From an uncultured Candidatus Saccharibacteria bacterium (lineage in GTDB: Bacteria > Patescibacteriota > Minisyncoccia > Minisyncoccales > GWA2-38-27), in the NCBI GenBank assembly GCA_964418955.1, contig CAYQNN010000002.1, forward strand, positions 1 through 32,868: a DNA stretch of 32,868 bases, read 5' to 3'. Positions 3,060 to 27,527 of this stretch are shown here, in pieces (positions within the stretch are counted from its first letter, which is position 1; each line of letters starts with the position of its first letter). The notes beneath the pieces are model-generated. The model saw only the letters and a list, made by a program, of their open reading frames with translations. It had not been told where the DNA came from and ran no database searches. The translations under genes and the position numbers were made by a program.

Positions 3060-4319
3060 TTATTCTAACATATTTAGAAAATCTACTATTTTTTGGGCCT
3101 GCTTTTGAGAGATATTTATATGGGTTGGCAGATTCAAGGTTATTTTAGATAGCTTCTCGGCCTTTGGACAACTGCCCATTTTATATTTTACTTTATCTAT
3201 GTTCGTATCATAAGGAGCGATTGGGGTTGTGTACCAATCCCCTATTAAAAGATTTCTTTCCCATGCCTTTTTAATTATCTGGTGAGCTTTAGGATGTTTT
3301 ATTGTAAAACGCAAAAATATATTTTTTCTCTCTGGGTATTTTTTTGGAAGTTCAAAAGATGATTTTTTCAAATTTTCAGAGTAAAAATCGGCTATTTTTT
3401 TTCGGTGATTATTAAACTTTTCTAATTTTAGAAACTGATTTTTGGCAAGCAAGACCAAAGCGTTTGGCATTCTTCTGGGAAAATAAGACGGTCTTTTGCC
3501 TTGTTTTTCTTTCCAGTGAACCGCCTTAGACAAAATATGAAACCATTGAGATAAAACTAAAATAATCTTACCGATTAAAATTTTATAAGTTGGCAGGATT
3601 AAAAAATTCATTAGAATAGGATGCAACAGTTGTTGTAACGTCCAATAATATGAGGGATAAGCAAGTTTGTCCTGAATTTGGCGAAGTTTTTCGCCAAGCG
3701 AAGGATCGTTAGTTACCGCCATTCCCCCATAGACAGAAGAAATTATTTTGTCCCGGGAAAAACTGAAAAAAGCGGCCTTGCCAAAAGTTCCAACTTTTTG
3801 GCCCTTGCGATTAGCCCCTAAAGAATGGGCGCAATCTTCAATTAGAATCAAGTTATTTTGCCGCGCAATATCCAAAATTTGAGCCATTTCCGCAGGTAAG
3901 CCAAATGTATGCTGAATTATTAACGCTTTGCTCTTAGGCGTTATCTTTTTCCTTAAATCTTCAACATCAATATTAAAATCATCTTCATTACAATCAACAT
4001 AAACGGGTTTCAACCCCGACCATAATATCGGATTAGACGCGGCATTGCAGGTAAATGCCTGAAGTAAAATTTCACCTCCCGACTCCGAATCAAGGGCTCT
4101 CAAAATTGCTATTAGAGAAGAACGGCCGCTATTGAAAGAAAAAGCGTATTTTATTCCAAGATATTCTTTAAATTGATTTTCTAATTCCTTAATCGCCTTC
4201 CCTTTTTTCCACTTCCAGGGCTGAAAGATTAATTTTAAAGTTAACCAAATATCGTCTTTTTGGGTGTTTGGAGATAAAGATATTGTAATTGGCTTAAATG
4301 CTTGACAAAATTTAAACAT
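3060..4319 (-). CDS. DegT/DnrJ/EryC1/StrS-family PLP-dependent aminotransferase
   Basis: 419 aa. FNSGRSSLIAILRAL, IEDCAHSLGA and the PLP-lysine region FSFSRDKIISS. Contains an extra hydrophobic segment (LLHPILMNFLILPTYKILIGKIILVLSQWF). Confidence 0.8.
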   Translation of the reverse strand: MFKFCQAFKPITISLSPNTQKDDIWLTLKLIFQPWKWKKGKAIKELENQFKEYLGIKYAFSFNSGRSSLIAILRALDSESGGEILLQAFTCNAASNPILWSGLKPVYVDCNEDDFNIDVEDLRKKITPKSKALIIQHTFGLPAEMAQILDIARQNNLILIEDCAHSLGANRKGQKVGTFGKAAFFSFSRDKIISSVYGGMAVTNDPSLGEKLRQIQDKLAYPSYYWTLQQLLHPILMNFLILPTYKILIGKIILVLSQWFHILSKAVHWKEKQGKRPSYFPRRMPNALVLLAKNQFLKLEKFNNHRKKIADFYSENLKKSSFELPKKYPERKNIFLRFTIKHPKAHQIIKKAWERNLLIGDWYTTPIAPYDTNIDKVKYKMGSCPKAEKLSKITLNLPTHINISQKQAQKIVDFLNMLE

Positions 4320-4389
4320 ATGCTATGATGTAATTAGTAAAAAAGGAGTAAAATTTGTTCATTCACAATTTAATTGGGAAGGAAAGAAA

Positions 4390-4906: not shown

Positions 4907-6451
4907 TTTTAGTAATTCTATCACTTCTTTTGGCGCTCTGCCCTCTAAAAGAATTACATCTTCTGAACCAGAAAAATCTTTTAATTCAAGATTATTATGT
5001 TCATACCTTGGCGAATCAAGGTTCTGGCGAGCGTTAGCGAGGCAGGTTCTTATTTTCCCTATAATTTCTTTCGGTTTCTCTAAAAGCAAAGCGTTTGGCG
5101 CTTCCTGTTTTATTTCTCTAAAATAATCTTTTGTGGTAATTATCGCCAGGTCGCAAATTTGATTGATTTTTCTGCCAATCTTCCGGTGAATCCCGCTGGA
5201 AGCGGGACCCAATTCAATTAGACAGGGCATTATAATAACTTTTTTTCCTTTATAAAGTTTTAAATAGTCCAAATCAGCAATTACTCCTTGAGGATTTGCC
5301 GAATAAGAAGAATCAATAATGGTAGGACTTTTTCCTGCCTGCCGGCCGGCAGGTTTTTTTAAAAATTTAATTCCTCCCTGCTCCGGTTTAATTTTTAAAC
5401 AAGCTTTGGAAATTTCTTTTAATGTCATCCCTAATTTTTTAGCGTAGCAAGCAGCCAATGAAATGTTTTCAATATTTTGGTTTCCTAATAAGTTTAGTCT
5501 AAAGTGAGCAGAATCCCCATCTCGAGAAATCGCTTTAAAAGAAATAAACTCTTTCTCTATTTTTATATCCTCTGCCCAAACGTCAGGATTTAATATATTT
5601 TCAACAATGGCCTGTATTAAATTGCCGTTACAAAGCTCCTTCTTAATTTTAGTCTTCCTATAAAGCTGAACGCAATATTCATTAACCCCGTTAAAAATTG
5701 CCGTTCCATCTTCGGGCAAATTTTCAATTAATTCGTATTTCCCTGCAATAATGTTTTCTTGGGAACCGAAAGTAGATAAATGCTGTTCATTAATGCCGGT
5801 TAAAATGCCAATTTTCGGCTGGAGCATCTGGCAAACCTCTTTTATTTTTCCTTTCTCATAAGCGCCTACTTCGGCAATAAAAATTTGGTGTTCCGCTGTC
5901 AGCTCGTTCAAAATAGCTCGGGCAATTCCTATTTCAGCATTAATATGTTTTTTTGTTTTTAGGACTTTAAATTTCTGAGATAAAATCGTGGCTAAAAATT
6001 CTTTAGTAGAGGTTTTACCGTAACTGCCGGTAATGCCAACAGCTATCAGGTTTTTAAATTGCTCTCTCTTTTTTCTCGCCCTGTTTAAGGTTCTTTTTAT
6101 TAAAATAATCGCCGGAATTTGAAAAAGCAAAACCAAAAAAGAAAAAATTATTGGAGCAAGAATAAATAAAACTAAAAATAGAAAATAGAACAAAAAATTG
6201 GATAAACTAAAAGAATAAAATAAAATTAATAGTTCGCCCAATACTCCAAAAATTAAAATAATAATGGTCTTTTTGGTCGGTTTTGGATATCTTAAGCCGT
6301 GTAAACTGAAAAATAACTTTCTTAATTTCTGGGTTTCAAAGTGAGCTTTGAATCTGCCCCAGTGATATTCTTTTAATTGCCAAAGCCAAAGCCAAAATAA
6401 AAGGAGTTTTGTAAAAACTAAAAGCCAAATAATTGCGATAAATATCTTCAT
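4904..6451 (-). CDS. murF: UDP-MurNAc-tripeptide--D-Ala-D-Ala ligase (MurF) with a multi-TM N-terminal extension
   Basis: 515 aa. Mur ligase P-loop GITGSYGKTSTKE, then NAEIGIARAIL and AEVGAYEKGKIKEV...GINEQHLSTFGS, which are MurF-like. The first ~125 aa form about 4 TM helices in place of the usual N-terminal domain. Confidence 0.85.
   Translation of the reverse strand: MKIFIAIIWLLVFTKLLLFWLWLWQLKEYHWGRFKAHFETQKLRKLFFSLHGLRYPKPTKKTIIILIFGVLGELLILFYSFSLSNFLFYFLFLVLFILAPIIFSFLVLLFQIPAIILIKRTLNRARKKREQFKNLIAVGITGSYGKTSTKEFLATILSQKFKVLKTKKHINAEIGIARAILNELTAEHQIFIAEVGAYEKGKIKEVCQMLQPKIGILTGINEQHLSTFGSQENIIAGKYELIENLPEDGTAIFNGVNEYCVQLYRKTKIKKELCNGNLIQAIVENILNPDVWAEDIKIEKEFISFKAISRDGDSAHFRLNLLGNQNIENISLAACYAKKLGMTLKEISKACLKIKPEQGGIKFLKKPAGRQAGKSPTIIDSSYSANPQGVIADLDYLKLYKGKKVIIMPCLIELGPASSGIHRKIGRKINQICDLAIITTKDYFREIKQEAPNALLLEKPKEIIGKIRTCLANARQNLDSPRYEHNNLELKDFSGSEDVILLEGRAPKEVIELLK
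5191..5205. repeat. CCCGCTGGAAGCGGG mini-palindrome inside murF
   Basis: Exact 15-mer, also present at 27266-27280. Confidence 0.9.
5339..5352. repeat. Perfect 14-nt palindrome CTGCCGGCCGGCAG inside murF
   Basis: Flanked by T-runs. Encodes KKPAGRQAGK. Confidence 0.85.
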
Positions 6452-16576: not shown

Positions 16577-16607
16577 ACCTTTCGTCCCGCTTCTAGCGGG
16601 AAACCTT
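16575..16607. repeat. Intergenic CCCGC-TTCTA-GCGGG hairpin flanked by a 7-nt direct repeat AAACCTT
   Basis: AAACCTT-tcgtCCCGCttctaGCGGG-AAACCTT. The loop orientation is opposite to the genic copies. Confidence 0.7.
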
Positions 16608-17494: not shown

Positions 17495-17535
17495 ACTTTA
17501 AGTATATCAAAATCGCTGACTAAATCAAAATAATT

Positions 17536-17573
17536 AACTCTCTAAAATTCACTATCGTGAATTTTAGAGAGTT
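17536..17573. repeat. Perfect 17-bp-arm palindrome, core CTCTAAAATTCAC-N4-GTGAATTTTAGAG
   Basis: Located in the divergent intergenic region between murI and CDS 17708. Confidence 0.95.
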
Positions 17574-24175: not shown

Positions 24176-24217
24176 GAGGCGCGGAAGATTATTTAAAATC
24201 AACCGCGCTCTTTTTTT
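24176..24217 (+). terminator. Intrinsic terminator
   Basis: GAGGCGCGG...CCGCGCTC followed by TTTTTTT, after the lipoprotein gene. Confidence 0.65.
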
Positions 24218-24229
24218 GGAGCTCTTTGT

Positions 24230-24287
24230 GACTTGCCCTGAGCTTGCCGAAGGAGCCTGCCCTGAGCGAGCGAAGCGAGCCGAAGGG
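24230..24287. repeat. 58-nt GC-rich repeat, intergenic copy
   Basis: 50/58 identical, without gaps, to 25603-25660. Confidence 0.9.
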
Positions 24288-24315
24288 TTGACAAAATCTA
24301 TAAATTTGCTACAAT
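24288..24315 (+). promoter_or_regulatory. sigma70-like promoter, TTGACA-16-TACAAT, for csrA
   Basis: The -35 element directly abuts the end of the 58-nt GC-rich repeat. Followed by a ~125-nt structured leader. Confidence 0.6.
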
Positions 24316-24445
24316 AAAGATAGTAAATCTATATAATTGCTTCGCTCGGCTGAAATGAAAATAAACTTTCATTTCTTCCTCACTTGCAATTATCAAAATT
24401 AGCTTTTTAACAATCAGCATAATTTAATTTGAAAGGAGTCTTAAA

Positions 24446-24631
24446 GTGTTGGTACTAAGCAGACAAAAAGATGAATCTATTATAATCGGCGATGATATAA
24501 GGGTTATGGTCGTCGATGTCAGGGGCGATAGGGTCCGTTTAGGAATTACCGCTCCGAGAGGCGTTCCTGTCCACCGAGAAGAAGTTTACGAAGCGATCCA
24601 AAGGGAAAAAAAAGAAAAACAAATTGAATAG
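24446..24631 (+). CDS. csrA: Carbon storage regulator CsrA/RsmA (GTG start)
   Basis: 61 aa. MLVLSRQKDESIIIGDDIRVMVVDVRGDRVRLGITAPRGVPVHREEVY is a full-length CsrA signature. AAAGGAG Shine-Dalgarno. Promoter at 24288-24315. Confidence 0.9.
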   Translation: MLVLSRQKDESIIIGDDIRVMVVDVRGDRVRLGITAPRGVPVHREEVYEAIQREKKEKQIE

Positions 24632-24645
24632 AAAGGAATCTTGCC

Positions 24646-24984
24646 ATGAATACCTCTAATTTGCTGAAAAAAAACAGAGGGCTGGAAAGGCAAATAGAAA
24701 AACTTATAGATTTAATCCAAGATCTTTTCAATGAAAATTCTCGCAGATCCGATCAAATCGAAGATTTATTGATAGAAAAAATTGGAATAAGAAATATGAT
24801 TATTGATATATATTTTTTATTACTCCACGAAACCGAAGAAAATAACTTTCTGGAAATTAACCCAAAAAATTTGACTGATATCCTTAACGACATCCGCGTT
24901 TTGATAAAAGTTCTCTTACTCCAGCAAGAAAGTTTGGAAAGAGAAAATTATGCCCTTCGGGACATAATCAAAGGAAAAAAATAA
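24646..24984 (+). CDS. Hypothetical coiled-coil protein immediately downstream of csrA
   Basis: 112 aa. AAAGGAA Shine-Dalgarno 14 nt after the csrA stop. Heptad-like helical sequence. Strong terminator at 24987-25017. Confidence 0.6.
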   Translation: MNTSNLLKKNRGLERQIEKLIDLIQDLFNENSRRSDQIEDLLIEKIGIRNMIIDIYFLLLHETEENNFLEINPKNLTDILNDIRVLIKVLLLQQESLERENYALRDIIKGKK

Positions 24985-24986
24985 TC

Positions 24987-25017
24987 AAAACGCTCGTCTC
25001 CTGACGAGCGTTTTTTT
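24987..25017 (+). terminator. Intrinsic terminator
   Basis: AAAACGCTCGTC-tcct-GACGAGCGTTTTTTT. Confidence 0.85.
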
Positions 25018-25038
25018 ATTCATATTCTATCAAATCAA

Positions 25039-25176
25039 CTAAACTGTCGGACCTCCTGGCGCCGTTGGAGGTGGAGGAGTTGATCCCCCGTCTTTCTTCT
25101 TTGAACCTTTGCTTATATAATAAATTACTATTCCTACCACTACCACTGCTATTATTATCCAAATAATTGTTGACAT
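25039..25176 (-). CDS. Possible small membrane protein, 45 aa (MSTIIWIIIAVVVVGIVIYYISKGSKKKDGGSTPPPPTAPGGPTV)
   Basis: Hand-translated and not in the ORF track. One TM helix plus a Pro/Gly tail. No clear Shine-Dalgarno. A possible TTGACA lies upstream near 25283-25288 on the minus strand. Confidence 0.3.
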   Translation of the reverse strand: MSTIIWIIIAVVVVGIVIYYISKGSKKKDGGSTPPPPTAPGGPTV

Positions 25177-25358
25177 AATTCAAAATTATTTATTTTTATT
25201 TTTTCGACCTTGTTTTTTTATGACCCATTGAAACAATTTACATTAATAATTGTTTCTTAATTTATTTTCCTCTCTTTATTTATTTATGTCAAGCAAGCCT
25301 GTGGAAAAGTCCGAGAAAGTGAAGTCCCCGACCCCTGCGCTATATACATTAATTAGAA

Positions 25359-26747
25359 TTAAAATTTCGCTCTCCATTGCTCGCTCAGGTTATAAATATC
25401 CCCGGCGCCCATAATAATTACTACCTCCCCTCCCTGCAAATTCCTCTTTAGATAATTTTTTACTCTTCCTTCTGGCAAATAGATCGCTTGGGGTTTGTTG
25501 AGCTTCTTAATTAATTTTTCTGAGCTAACTTTCTTCTTTATTCCTCCTTTTTCCCTGCCGGCTACGTCATAAATATCAGTGATTATTAATTTATCTATTT
25601 GGGACTTGCTATGAGTTTGCCGAAGGAGCTTGCCCTGAGAGAGCGGAGTGAGTCGAAGGGCTTTGGAAAAAACATTAATAAAATCATTAAATAAATAAAA
25701 AGTTCTTTGGTATTGGTGGGGCTGAAAAATACACCAAATTTTCTTTTTTGGGAAGTATTCCCTTGCCGCTTCCAGGGTGGCTTTAATCTCGGTTGGATGG
25801 TGAGCGTAATCTGAAATAATAGTAATTTTCTTATTGCTAATTATTCCTTTCTCTATTTCAAAGCGCCGCCAAGCGCCTTTGTATTGAGATAACGCTTTAA
25901 ATGAAACTTTGTCTGAAACTTTCAAAGCCCGAGCCACTGTTAAAGCGGCTAAAGCATTATAGACATTATGTTCTCCTGGTATTTTTAGAATTTTTTTTAA
26001 TCTTTCTGCTTCTTTCTGTTTTATTGAAAACTCTCTAATTGAAAATTTATTAAATCCCGCTGGAAGCGGAAGGAAATTGGAAATTTTTTTGATATTTCTA
26101 TCATCTCTATTCGCTATCAACACTCCGTCTTCTGGAAGATGCTCTATATATTCTTTAAAAGTTTTTAAAATATGCTTCAAATTCTTGTAATAATCAAGAT
26201 GTTCTCTTTCAATGTTGGTTAAAACTATAATCTTGGGCCAATAATTTAAAAAAGATGCCTGCCATTCATCTGCCTCAATAACTAAATACTCGCTCTTCCC
26301 TATTCTAAAATTAGTCTGGCCAAATTCTTTTAACTTGGTGCCGATAATTACTGTTGGGTCAAGCCCTGCTTTTATCAAAATAGAAGCTGCCATTGCGCAG
26401 GTTGTGCTTTTTCCGTGGGTGCCGGAAATTGCAATGGTAAAATATTTTTTTGTTAATCCTCCCAACGCTTCGGGATAGCTTTGGATTTTAATGCCCAACT
26501 TTTTCGCTTTCTTAATTTCCGGATTATCTGGCTGAACCGCCGGACTATAAATTACTAAATCAGCGTCATCTGACAGGTTTTTAGCCAAATGCCGCGCAAT
26601 AAAAATTTTGGCTCCTGATTTTTTCAGGAAATCGGTAATTTCCGAAGACGCTAAATCAGAACCGCTAACCCGATGCCTTTTTGCTAAATAATACTGGGCA
26701 AGGGCAGATACACCTATCCCGCCGATGCCAACAAAATGTATTCTCAT
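25359..26747 (-). CDS. murC: UDP-MurNAc--L-alanine ligase (MurC)
   Basis: 462 aa. FVGIGGIGVSALAQYYL..VSGSD, ISGTHGKSTT, DYAHHPTEI. Confidence 0.95.
   Translation of the reverse strand: MRIHFVGIGGIGVSALAQYYLAKRHRVSGSDLASSEITDFLKKSGAKIFIARHLAKNLSDDADLVIYSPAVQPDNPEIKKAKKLGIKIQSYPEALGGLTKKYFTIAISGTHGKSTTCAMAASILIKAGLDPTVIIGTKLKEFGQTNFRIGKSEYLVIEADEWQASFLNYWPKIIVLTNIEREHLDYYKNLKHILKTFKEYIEHLPEDGVLIANRDDRNIKKISNFLPLPAGFNKFSIREFSIKQKEAERLKKILKIPGEHNVYNALAALTVARALKVSDKVSFKALSQYKGAWRRFEIEKGIISNKKITIISDYAHHPTEIKATLEAAREYFPKKKIWCIFQPHQYQRTFYLFNDFINVFSKALRLTPLSQGKLLRQTHSKSQIDKLIITDIYDVAGREKGGIKKKVSSEKLIKKLNKPQAIYLPEGRVKNYLKRNLQGGEVVIIMGAGDIYNLSEQWRAKF
25603..25660. repeat. 58-nt GC-rich repeat, copy inside murC (in-frame)
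   Basis: Encodes ALRLTPLSQGKLLRQTHSKS on the minus strand. Confidence 0.9.
26056..26069. repeat. CCCGCTGGAAGCGG mini-palindrome inside murC
   Basis: Read as LPLPAG, a different frame from the murF and thpR copies. Confidence 0.85.
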
Positions 26748-27385
26748 TTTTCAGATTCTAAATTATGAGATTCTAAGATTGTATATTCTGGCCCCCTCTT
26801 TTTTAAGATGCTTTCCATCGCTTCAATTGAATTAGCCGAGAAGCTCAGATTAATATTTTCATTAACAACCGGCCTTTCTTCCGGTTCAATTCGTTTCCAC
26901 TCCCACTGCTTAATTCTTCCCAAAGTGATATGAGGAGAAAATGTTCTATTTTCAGCAGAAAAACTGGCATTTGCCGAATCAGACAAGGATTTATCTAAAT
27001 TATCTTTTAAAGAAGCGAATTCTTTTGATTTTTCCCCTATCGCCCAAATCATCTTGGGCGGTCTTTTATCAAGAGTTTGCCCCGCCCGAGGCAAAGGTCC
27101 ATAACAAATCTTAATTAAATTAACTAAAAATGGCGGCTGCTTAGACGCTACCTTTTTAACAATATTACAGATATCCAAAAGTTCGTCATTATTAACATAC
27201 CCAATAAAATCCAGCGTAATATGAATATTTCTTATTTTCGTCCATCTAATCGGCCCCATATCAGCCCCGCTGGAAGCGGGACGTTGCAGAGTAAATAATT
27301 CTTCAATCTTTTTCTGATATTCAGCCAATTTTTTCTTTATATCTTCCGGTAGATTTATAGCGACAAAAATACGATGTCTTTGCAT
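26744..27385 (-). CDS. thpR: RNA 2',3'-cyclic phosphodiesterase (2H family, LigT/ThpR)
   Basis: 213 aa. Two HxTx motifs (NIHITLDF and SPHITLGR). ATGA overlap with the murC start. Confidence 0.85.
   Translation of the reverse strand: MQRHRIFVAINLPEDIKKKLAEYQKKIEELFTLQRPASSGADMGPIRWTKIRNIHITLDFIGYVNNDELLDICNIVKKVASKQPPFLVNLIKICYGPLPRAGQTLDKRPPKMIWAIGEKSKEFASLKDNLDKSLSDSANASFSAENRTFSPHITLGRIKQWEWKRIEPEERPVVNENINLSFSANSIEAMESILKKRGPEYTILESHNLESEK
27266..27280. repeat. CCCGCTGGAAGCGGG mini-palindrome inside thpR
   Basis: Exact 15-mer. Read as RPASSG. Confidence 0.9.
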
Positions 27386-27439
27386 AATAATTTATTTTAC
27401 TAAAATAAGTAAAATCTGGCAACAATCGTAATATGATAT

Positions 27440-27489
27440 AATTATACCCCTCTAAAATTCACGACCGTGAATTTTAGAGGGGTATAATT
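27440..27489. repeat. Perfect 23-bp-arm palindrome with the same core, CTCTAAAATTCAC-N4-GTGAATTTTAGAG
   Basis: Located in the divergent intergenic region between thpR and amrS. The outer arms read GGGGTATAAT outward on both strands. Confidence 0.95.
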
Positions 27490-27527
27490 TTTTCTTTAGA
27501 AAAATTAAAAATAATGGTAAAATTATA

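Follow-up and report, generated by a model that had tools for sequence, protein, structure and literature searches.

How does one short, GC-rich sequence come to occupy both the DNA in front of a promoter and, in frame, the interior of an essential gene? The question is raised by a 32,868-nt stretch of contig CAYQNN010000002.1, assigned to an uncultured Candidatus Saccharibacteria bacterium of the Candidate Phyla Radiation (CPR) and referred to here, at its full length, as the window. Its initial annotation drew attention to a 58-nt repeat that lies once between genes, upstream of csrA (copy A), and once inside murC (copy B). We find that both copies are members of a single dispersed family built from units of about 24 nt. 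As first proposed, the family occupies non-coding DNA as well as an essential open reading frame (ORF), and this description can be widened to other CPR genes, other phyla and viruses. In our judgement the family is probably a coding-compatible selfish repeat, whose units are gained, nested within one another, lost and eroded toward A+T.

The repeat pair and its unit

Positions 24230-24287 and 25603-25660 are identical at 50 of 58 positions, without gaps and in direct orientation, just as the initial annotation had it. A repeat search widens the pair to 66 nt (24222-24287 / 25595-25660) at 85% identity, and comparison of the window with itself by blastn aligns 63 nt at 85.7% identity with a score of 69.9 bits. 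The top non-self score in 25 dinucleotide-preserving shuffles ranged from 29.5 to 41.1 bits, and the pair is by far the strongest repeat of the window, whose G+C content is 35%. A profile built from 131 family members recognizes just two loci in the window, copy A and copy B; the GC-rich fragments at 5024-5046, 27569 and 31077, originally listed as relatives, fall outside the family by this profile. The pair and its surroundings are laid out as follows.

24176..24217, plus strand: terminator-like hairpin and T-run of the glycine-zipper gene, 5' of copy A (stem ~24178-24209, T-run to 24217)
24222..24229, plus strand: left flank of copy A, 8 nt, CTCTTTGT, with a 6/8 match to the copy B flank CTATTTGG
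24230..24287, plus strand: copy A, two tandem units, intergenic, defined by sequence comparison
24230-24253, plus strand: copy A unit 1, GACTTGCCCTGAGCTTGCCGAAGG, with the canonical TTG loop
24254-24287, plus strand: copy A unit 2, AGCCTGCCCTGAGCGAGCGAAGCGAGCCGAAGGG, of the '+9' loop subfamily
24288..24315, plus strand: csrA promoter-like site, TTGACA at 24288-24293, 16 nt, TACAAT; 11/12 matches, with TG
24446..24631, plus strand: csrA (Pfam CsrA, E = 6e-26), downstream of copy A
25359..26747, minus strand: murC (UDP-N-acetylmuramate--L-alanine ligase), 462 aa, three Mur-ligase Pfam domains, frame intact
25602..25658, minus strand: net 57-nt (19-codon) insertion in murC, residues 364-382, LRLTPLSQGKLLRQTHSKS
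25603..25660, plus strand: copy B, the same two-unit array, on the strand opposite murC

The last base of copy A is 24287 and the -35 TTGACA of the csrA promoter-like site begins at the next one, so that the intergenic copy does end exactly where it had been said to end. The unit has the form AGCCT-GCCCTGAGC-loop-CGAAGG, and each copy is an array of two such units arranged head to tail. Unit 1 reads GACTT-GCCCTGAGC-TTG-CCGAAGG and, in copy A, is an exact match to the pan-bacterial 19-mer GCCCTGAGCTTGCCGAAGG; unit 2 reads AGCCT-GCCCTGAGC-GAGCGAAGCGAG-CCGAAGG, with a loop 9 nt longer. Both thus carry what marks the family, namely the core GCCCTGAGCTTGYCGAAGG or a loop variant between CCCTGAGC and CGAAGG, and copy B holds decayed versions of the same. 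The head-to-tail junction ..CGAAGG-AGCCT-GCCCTGAGC.. is also present, and the window junction CGAAGGAGCCTGCCCTGAGC recurs identically in the Thermodesulfobacteriota contig L087.

At seven of the eight positions where the copies differ, G or C in copy A faces A or T in copy B, which points to copy B as the more eroded of the two, in the direction of A+T. Its left flank, CTATTTGG, consists of native murC codons (Q/P-I-D); the 6/8 match to the flank of copy A may be accidental, may reflect a preferred target or may be left over from copying between both loci. Five of the six frames of the array are free of stop codons (TCPELAEG.., LALSLPKE.., PFGSLR.., PSARFARSGQAPSASSGQV, LRLASLAQGRLLRQAQGK).

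A palindrome or hairpin as the main feature of the element was rejected on the folding scores: the DNA of both copies, on both strands, folds with -3.2 to -6.5 kcal/mol, at z-scores of +0.5 to +2.2 relative to 200 shuffles. A more modest structure is suggested by 353 CCTGAGY-loop-YGAAGG instances, a sample biased by the picking of loci for a canonical core. The outer bases of these pair in 94%, compared with 89.0 ± 0.5% when partners are shuffled, and the change of the stem from C-G to T-A is concerted (right A in 15/36 with left T, and in 7/310 with left C). These sequence comparisons support a small hairpin with a weak 4-5-bp stem, CCCT/AGGG, and a variable loop, GAGC...CGA. In Rfam, the window and 17 repeat-bearing loci gave no match at gathering score and nothing relevant at E <= 5, and attempts by eye to read the core as hammerhead-like or as tRNA T-loop-like were dropped, the defining nucleotides being missing.

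The MurC site, other genes and other genomes

Across copy B the window MurC reads ..VFSKA LRLTPLSQGKLLRQTHSKS QIDK... Its closest homologue, P0002 at locus L001, reads VFSKA-P-IDR (codons TCC AAA GCA / CCA ATA GAC), and the net gain is therefore the 19 codons given above, in frame as initially claimed. That MurC proteins elsewhere would be contiguous here had been put forward in the initial annotation, and phmmer alignments to PDB MurC chains bear it out: residues 363-382 are unpaired and the flanking chain residues are adjacent (9ir5, 6cau), rather than aligning through the extra residues. An AlphaFold2 model of the window protein, built with 38 homologues, has a mean pLDDT (predicted local distance difference test) score of 87.5, and this falls below 50 in two stretches only, residues 369-379 within the insert and residues 229-232. 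In the C-terminal domain the insert follows helix 353-364 and precedes strand 386-389, in a poorly modelled and presumably exposed loop. An intein or translational bypass at this site was dropped from consideration, as the insert comprises 19 residues with no stop codon and no catalytic motifs.

The position is a recurrent one. Among the 120 closest MurC homologues, 38 have extra residues at exactly this codon, all in one frame, and 82 have none. The commonest size is +8 residues (LRQAQGKP type), with +2, +4, +6, +13, +17 and +19 also represented; metagenome locus L158 has +24 at this site and, in addition, a second unit (VRQAQGK) in another MurC loop. The DNA of the +8 insert is a family unit, as in L152 (GCC CTT CGA CAG GCT CAG GGT AAA CCC), and the longer inserts of L133/L137 and L158 contain further units or a small hairpin nested in a unit. 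On a neighbour-joining tree of MurC made with the insert columns left out, parsimony requires at least 19 changes of insert presence or absence, compared with a mean of 32.5 and a minimum of 23 when the labels are shuffled.

Two pairs of closely related alleles show how the site changes. The murC genes of P0037 and P0045 (L315/L316) share 94.8% DNA identity and are separated by a clean 24-nt indel flanked by GCCCT/GCCCC, reading ..GAAGCCCT/TCGACCAGCTCAGGGCAAGCCCCA/AATTGAT.. in one and ..GAAGCCCC/AATTGAT.. in the other. In L137 and L139, at 96.7% DNA identity, a 27-nt difference lies inside a resident unit, between two CGAAG repeats, and the extra DNA is an inverted 24-nt unit (AGTTCGGCTGAGGCTCACCCGAAG) plus 3 nt. 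Read as alignments, both pairs show unit-sized change between very close relatives, apparently aimed at resident units.

The family is not confined to MurC. It was recognized within the following CPR genes, the proteins being named from their sequences.

PolX/PHP polymerase, Saccharibacteria: ALRQAQGKPGG
RNase-J-like metallo-beta-lactamase, Saccharibacteria: PSTSSGQ
Leucyl aminopeptidase, Saccharibacteria: PSTSSGQ
AspRS, Saccharibacteria: PSTSSGQ
DJ-1/PfpI protein, Peribacteria: PSASSGQ
Glycosyltransferase, 'Patescibacteria group': ALSLPKG

The aminopeptidase, the one protein of the six searched against PDB, has its insert at a 9-residue gap relative to 8pz0, just before the conserved VLVGKGxTFDTGG motif. 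Among relatives of the window, AmmeMemoRadiSam protein B has ..LEA HSASSGQA W.. at 4 loci; the remaining 17, that of the window included, have ..LEA SGIN W.. instead. Family DNA is translated in three frames in CPR genes, and it is therefore a DNA-level element and not a protein module; a fourth frame, PELVEG, occurs in two ORFs that are possibly spurious. Among 32 low-GC matches to the family, 27 lie outside long ORFs, and three of the five intragenic ones belong to CPR.

How far the family extends beyond these relatives was gauged by scanning one genome per species (185,579 species, 596 Gb) for the exact 19-mer GCCCTGAGCTTGYCGAAGG. At least 120 stretches contain it, where chance would supply of the order of ten by an estimate that assumes uniform base composition, and the matches listed span more than 20 bacterial phyla and include cultured isolates. 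They comprise Actinomycetota, Alpha-, Beta-, Gamma- and Delta-proteobacteria, NC10, Acidobacteriota, Armatimonadota, Chloroflexota, Cyanobacteriota, Bacteroidota, Ignavibacteria, Calditrichaceae, Lentisphaerales, Opitutaceae, Sedimentisphaerales, Chlamydiota, Gemmatimonadales, Campylobacterota, Thermodesulfobacteriota, Eremiobacterota and Dormiibacterota, together with Saccharibacteria, Peribacteria and the 'Patescibacteria group' from CPR. With its core in many phyla and in other CPR genes, the repeat is no private local duplication of this contig. Conservation reaches into the flanks outside the searched 19-mer, with the consensus ccgttc or agcct (131 copies).

The family comes in two flavours: inverted doublets, ccgttcGCCCTGAGCTTGTCGAAGGgc ... 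gcttcgacaagctcagcccgaacgg, mainly in proteobacteria, and agcctGCCCTGAGCTTGcCGAAGGg units, often in 24-nt tandem arrays such as those of L092 (at least six consecutive units), L084, L087, L045 and L221. The +9 unit of the window is found also in L129, in L058 and in viral contigs L313/L314. Its 27-mer CCCTGAGCGAGCGAAGCGAGTCGAAGG has the same letters throughout in L129, which is related to the window and has a GC content of ~35%, and in viral contig L313, with 68%; variants are seen in an Acidobacteriaceae genome and in a second viral contig. Of the IMG/VR viral contigs, 108 contain the canonical 19-mer, one setting being the DNA between phage structural genes. In Sphingobium megaplasmids it turns up as many as 14 times per megaplasmid, with no annotation over it. 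The inverted pair of copies in viral contig L224 was considered as a composite transposon, and this was rejected, since phage structural genes lie in the interval. The 74-nt copy A searched against phage GenBank records returned 20-22-nt chance-level matches only. The core DNA and the encoded peptides are without match in the full-text literature searched, where CPR combined with repeats or miniature transposable elements with inverted repeats (MITEs) leads to general papers on MITEs and on repetitive extragenic palindromic (REP) sequences only.

The copy A site can also be compared among relatives. Locus L129, of the MurC P0018 lineage, is 66-69% identical to the window MurC by BLAST/tblastn and 74% identical in the homologue alignment. 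It has a single +9 unit at the copy A position, after the same terminator hairpin and followed by TTGAC, and its murC site is empty. In L001, the closest relative, the terminator is separated from the -35 box by just AACCCTGACC, which is perhaps an empty site or, given the CCCTGA within it, a deletion remnant. Both window loci hold the composite of unit 1 and unit 2(+9), and relatives have one unit or the other. From this we infer that the composite was copied between the window loci, or from a third copy into both, probably by gene conversion anchored on a resident unit. Copy A as the source of the csrA promoter was rejected: the same TTGACA...TACAAT is kept in L001, L002, L004 and L129, with or without the element, and the promoter is thus native and not part of it.

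Other features surround these genes. The nearest proteins to the window MurC bear the labels Candidatus Nealsonbacteria or Patescibacteria. Right after csrA, at 24646-24984, there is a 112-aa ORF without a Pfam match, and L001 and L004 have 46-aa genes near csrA. The csrA 5' leader (~24316-24400) exceeds its counterparts in L001, L002 and L004 by ~70 nt; the additional DNA includes a hairpin, GAAATGAAA...TTTCATTTC, as well as GCTTCGCTCG (24339-24348), a 10-nt inverted match to CGAGCGAAGC in copy A (24267-24276), so that the csrA promoter is bracketed by an inverted pair. Promoter-like TTGACAAAATTTAAACATATGCTATGAT at 4297-4341 has 73% identity over 45 nt to the csrA promoter region (24283-24327). 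In L129, an insert of ~150 nt (5270-5425, minus strand) separates the repeat unit from the csrA promoter; duplicated GGGTTGAC and inverted CCCTCACA / TGTGAGGG at its edges give it a MITE-like look. Within murC, L315 and L316 differ further by an in-frame 33-nt AT-rich palindrome, TTTACCGAGCACATAAAAATTTATGTGCTGCGG (IYRAHKNLCAAV), which is also in P0074, and by an in-frame 12-nt tandem duplication. A recurrent peptide insert, YPPKFSxxKxRRA, at two MurC positions in different lineages (P0108, P0109, P0064) suggests a further mobile in-frame element.

The window has a second repeat of comparable habit. The hairpin CCCGCTGGAAGCGGGA is present in five copies with at most one mismatch:

2687-2702
5192-5207
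16585-16600
26056-26071
27266-27281

Allowing up to three mismatches, there are 9 window matches where 0.1 are expected; the part common to the copies is the 16-17-nt hairpin only. It is in frame in four ORFs and in two frames, one giving PLPAG (a FemAB-family gene and murC) and the other PASSG (a Mur-ligase gene and LigT). In murC the hairpin coincides with the low-confidence loop at residues 229-232, and the LigT stretch with the hairpin is missing from the L004 orthologue. The hairpin is essentially absent from 760 kb of related genomes and is lineage-specific. At least two kinds of GC-rich mini-elements have therefore settled, in frame, in the genes of the window lineage. Apart from both, a near-perfect 60-nt palindrome (29-nt arms, 93% complementary) occupies the spacer between the divergent LigT and radical-SAM genes at 27435-27494, with a related half-copy ~10 kb away at 17520-17569; it may serve as an operator or as a bidirectional terminator, or may represent a further repeat family.

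Probable selfish spread and its alternatives

We suggest that the family behaves as selfish, non-autonomous DNA, whose units, judging from the comparisons above, are added at new sites. New units would favour resident ones, landing inside or beside them at CGAAG or GCCC microhomologies; tandem or nested arrays would result, and units would also be lost again. In the gene-dense, AT-rich genomes of CPR most landings would be in genes, and the surviving copies would be those that keep the frame (24 nt make 8 codons, and the 24 + 33 = 57 nt of the window make 19), bring no stop codon and sit in surface loops that tolerate them. In the C-terminal domain of MurC, the loop that follows the VFSxA helix may be such a permissive place, reused in the lineage; an insert there would be translated as a disordered loop and would then erode toward A+T, as copy B seems to have done. 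For the copying step our preferred guess is a hairpin-/single-strand- or microhomology-directed process acting in trans, and ectopic gene conversion between resident copies would account for the same composite at both window loci.

Several observations weigh against selfish spread. The copy number is low, with two loci in the 32.9 kb of the window and ~16 copies at about five distinct sites in 794 kb of related genomes (block-shuffled, these genomes yield 0-4 family matches per run over 20 runs, against the ~16 real ones). No transposase, reverse transcriptase or integrase was found among the window genes, and the folding energy of both copies is no better than that of shuffles. Terminal inverted repeats are lacking, since GACTTGCC... 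at one end and ...CCGAAGGG at the other are not inverted copies and the repeat search gave no inverted pair at this locus, and a clear target-site duplication was not found; filled and empty alleles differ around 4-5-nt direct repeats (GCCCT/GCCCC, CGAAG) that are partly intrinsic to the unit. The csrA-upstream site is common to the distant relative L129, and copy A does not appear demonstrably recent. The single codon position and frame in MurC would also fit one ancient insertion with losses and local remodelling, gains and losses appearing indistinguishable in these sequences, allele pairs included. The identity of the core across phyla has no explanation.

Second in rank, and unlikely in our view, is a single ancient insertion at each site, in an ancestor of the clade, with no present mobility, its later history being one of vertical descent, slippage, microhomology deletions and gene conversion. 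The constancy of codon position and frame (38/38 MurC inserts) speaks for such a history, as do the clade formed by the decayed LKKTGTKA-type inserts (P0059, P0099, P0021, P0061), the csrA-upstream unit common to L129 with its possible remnant AACCCTGACC in L001, the slippage-favouring short direct repeats (GCCC, CGAAG) at the indels, and the low copy number. We place it behind selfish spread because the family is found at other sites, in other genes and frames and in other CPR classes, with a second MurC site in L158; because the nested unit of L137 is inverted and is no duplicate of its neighbour; because the inserts of L152 and L191 are near-canonical though their flanks have diverged by 30-35%; and because exact 19- to 27-mers are common to unrelated phyla and viruses.

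The microhomology at the junctions, 4-5 nt long, would equally be expected if imported DNA fragments were patched into the chromosome, with no dedicated enzyme, and the repeat were simply the most abundant GC-rich fragment. The family is indeed abundant in many co-occurring phyla and phages, and the intragenic low-GC copies are mostly from CPR (3/5). Insert sizes, however, are quantised at one unit of 24 nt with constant ends, rather than being of random length, and units target resident units; we consider foreign-DNA patching improbable.

Selection for a function, either as an adaptive MurC loop or through copies A and B as a regulatory pair (an antisense RNA or a protein-binding site), seems to us very improbable. 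Copy A abuts the -35 box in two lineages, its plus strand is complementary to the murC mRNA over 58 nt (86%), and stem positions covary. An adaptive loop is nonetheless hard to reconcile with different frames of the same DNA in different proteins, with an insert that is absent from most MurC orthologues, the closest one included, with a loop predicted to be disordered and with the erosion of copy B toward A+T; as to regulation, copy A lies outside the csrA transcript, after a terminator and before the promoter. Finally, an assembly chimera or local duplication error, for which the metagenomic origin of the contig is the single argument, can be set aside, since the insert keeps frame, the copies differ at 8/58 positions and related inserts occur at the same codon in independent NCBI, ENA and JGI assemblies.

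If selfish spread is the right explanation, it bears on how CPR proteins vary. Selfish DNA inside coding genes is known mainly from Rickettsia and a few other genera, and it would be extended to CPR through a far smaller and more widespread element. The family would offer a concrete source for many lineage-specific loop insertions in CPR proteins, and its naturally occurring pairs of filled and empty alleles, 95-97% identical in their DNA, would make the chemistry of insertion or excision readable. Such inserts would inflate protein-length variation and can mislead marker-gene annotation, alignment and phylogeny in metagenome-assembled genomes. There is also the question of how a 19- to 27-nt sequence stays identical across phyla and phages. 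As a bolder and more tentative step, which we regard as a serious possibility, the family may constitute an undescribed class of 24-nt-unit, stop-free, GC-rich selfish DNA, nearly identical in more than 20 bacterial phyla and their phages, that is currently active in CPR, entering and leaving essential genes at permissive loops. Self-targeting nested arrays would then be continually making and removing disordered protein segments in genomes that are among the most streamlined known.

Relation to known repeats

The initial annotation likened the repeat to Rickettsia palindromic elements (RPE), which are 100-150 bp long, strongly palindromic and restricted to Rickettsia. These are reportedly the subject of Ogata et al. 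2000. They are mentioned in PMC1779305 and PMC10969869. As far as behaviour goes the likeness stands: there are intergenic copies together with in-frame copies in housekeeping genes (copy A, copy B and those of other CPR genes), and these are tolerated through a length that is a multiple of three, the lack of stops and placement in surface loops, followed by decay. It fails on the palindrome, both copies folding no better than shuffles, and on size, the unit being of 24 nt (58-66 nt are shared here); the window family also has few copies per genome and a core common, among the matches listed, to more than 20 phyla, and to phages. Host phylum and base composition are different as well.

REP and REPIN elements are said to have been treated by Bertels and Rainey in 2011. 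They are mobilised by RAYT (REP-associated tyrosine transposase) enzymes of the Y1/HUH type and carry a GTAG or CGTC head (PMC3733652). The window family resembles them in its 20-40-nt GC-rich unit, which may form a small imperfect hairpin (the stem change is concerted, the folding energy not significant), in the apparent lack of a target-site duplication, in clustering and, in proteobacteria, in its inverted doublets ccgttcGCCCTGAGCTTGTCGAAGGgc...gcttcgacaagctcagcccgaacgg. REP sequences are, however, extragenic by definition and species-specific, whereas the family in CPR is mostly intragenic and is single or tandem rather than inverted; in place of the GTAG/CGTC head its 131 copies have ccgttc or agcct flanks. 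No RAYT / Y1 transposase gene was found within the 32.9-kb window.

MITEs inside bacterial genes provide a third point of reference, with the Coxiella QMITEs (PMC5896051), the enterobacterial RU/ERIC elements (PMC2759123) and a review (PMC10969869). Like them, the window element is a small non-autonomous repeat that extends or interrupts ORFs and adds peptide segments. MITEs have terminal inverted repeats and target-site duplications and measure 50-500 bp; the window element has no terminal inverted repeats, and no clear target-site duplication was found for it.

Two further systems are instructive. The GC clusters of yeast mitochondria are mobile, GC-rich and palindromic, with a TAG-type target and in-frame copies in var1. 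The window family shares with them a short GC-rich sequence in an AT-rich genome, presence/absence polymorphism and nested or adjacent insertion, in another domain of life and with no sequence similarity. Borg elements contain in-frame tandem nucleotide repeats, reportedly described by Schoelmerich et al. 2023; these likewise have units divisible by three, give disordered protein segments and occur also between genes; they form perfect, locally generated, locus-unique arrays, whereas the window element belongs to one dispersed family across loci and phyla.

Set beside these systems, the element fails the defining features of RPE (palindrome and size), of MITEs (terminal inverted repeats) and of classical REP sequences (head and extragenic position), and we file it with the coding-compatible interspersed repeats.

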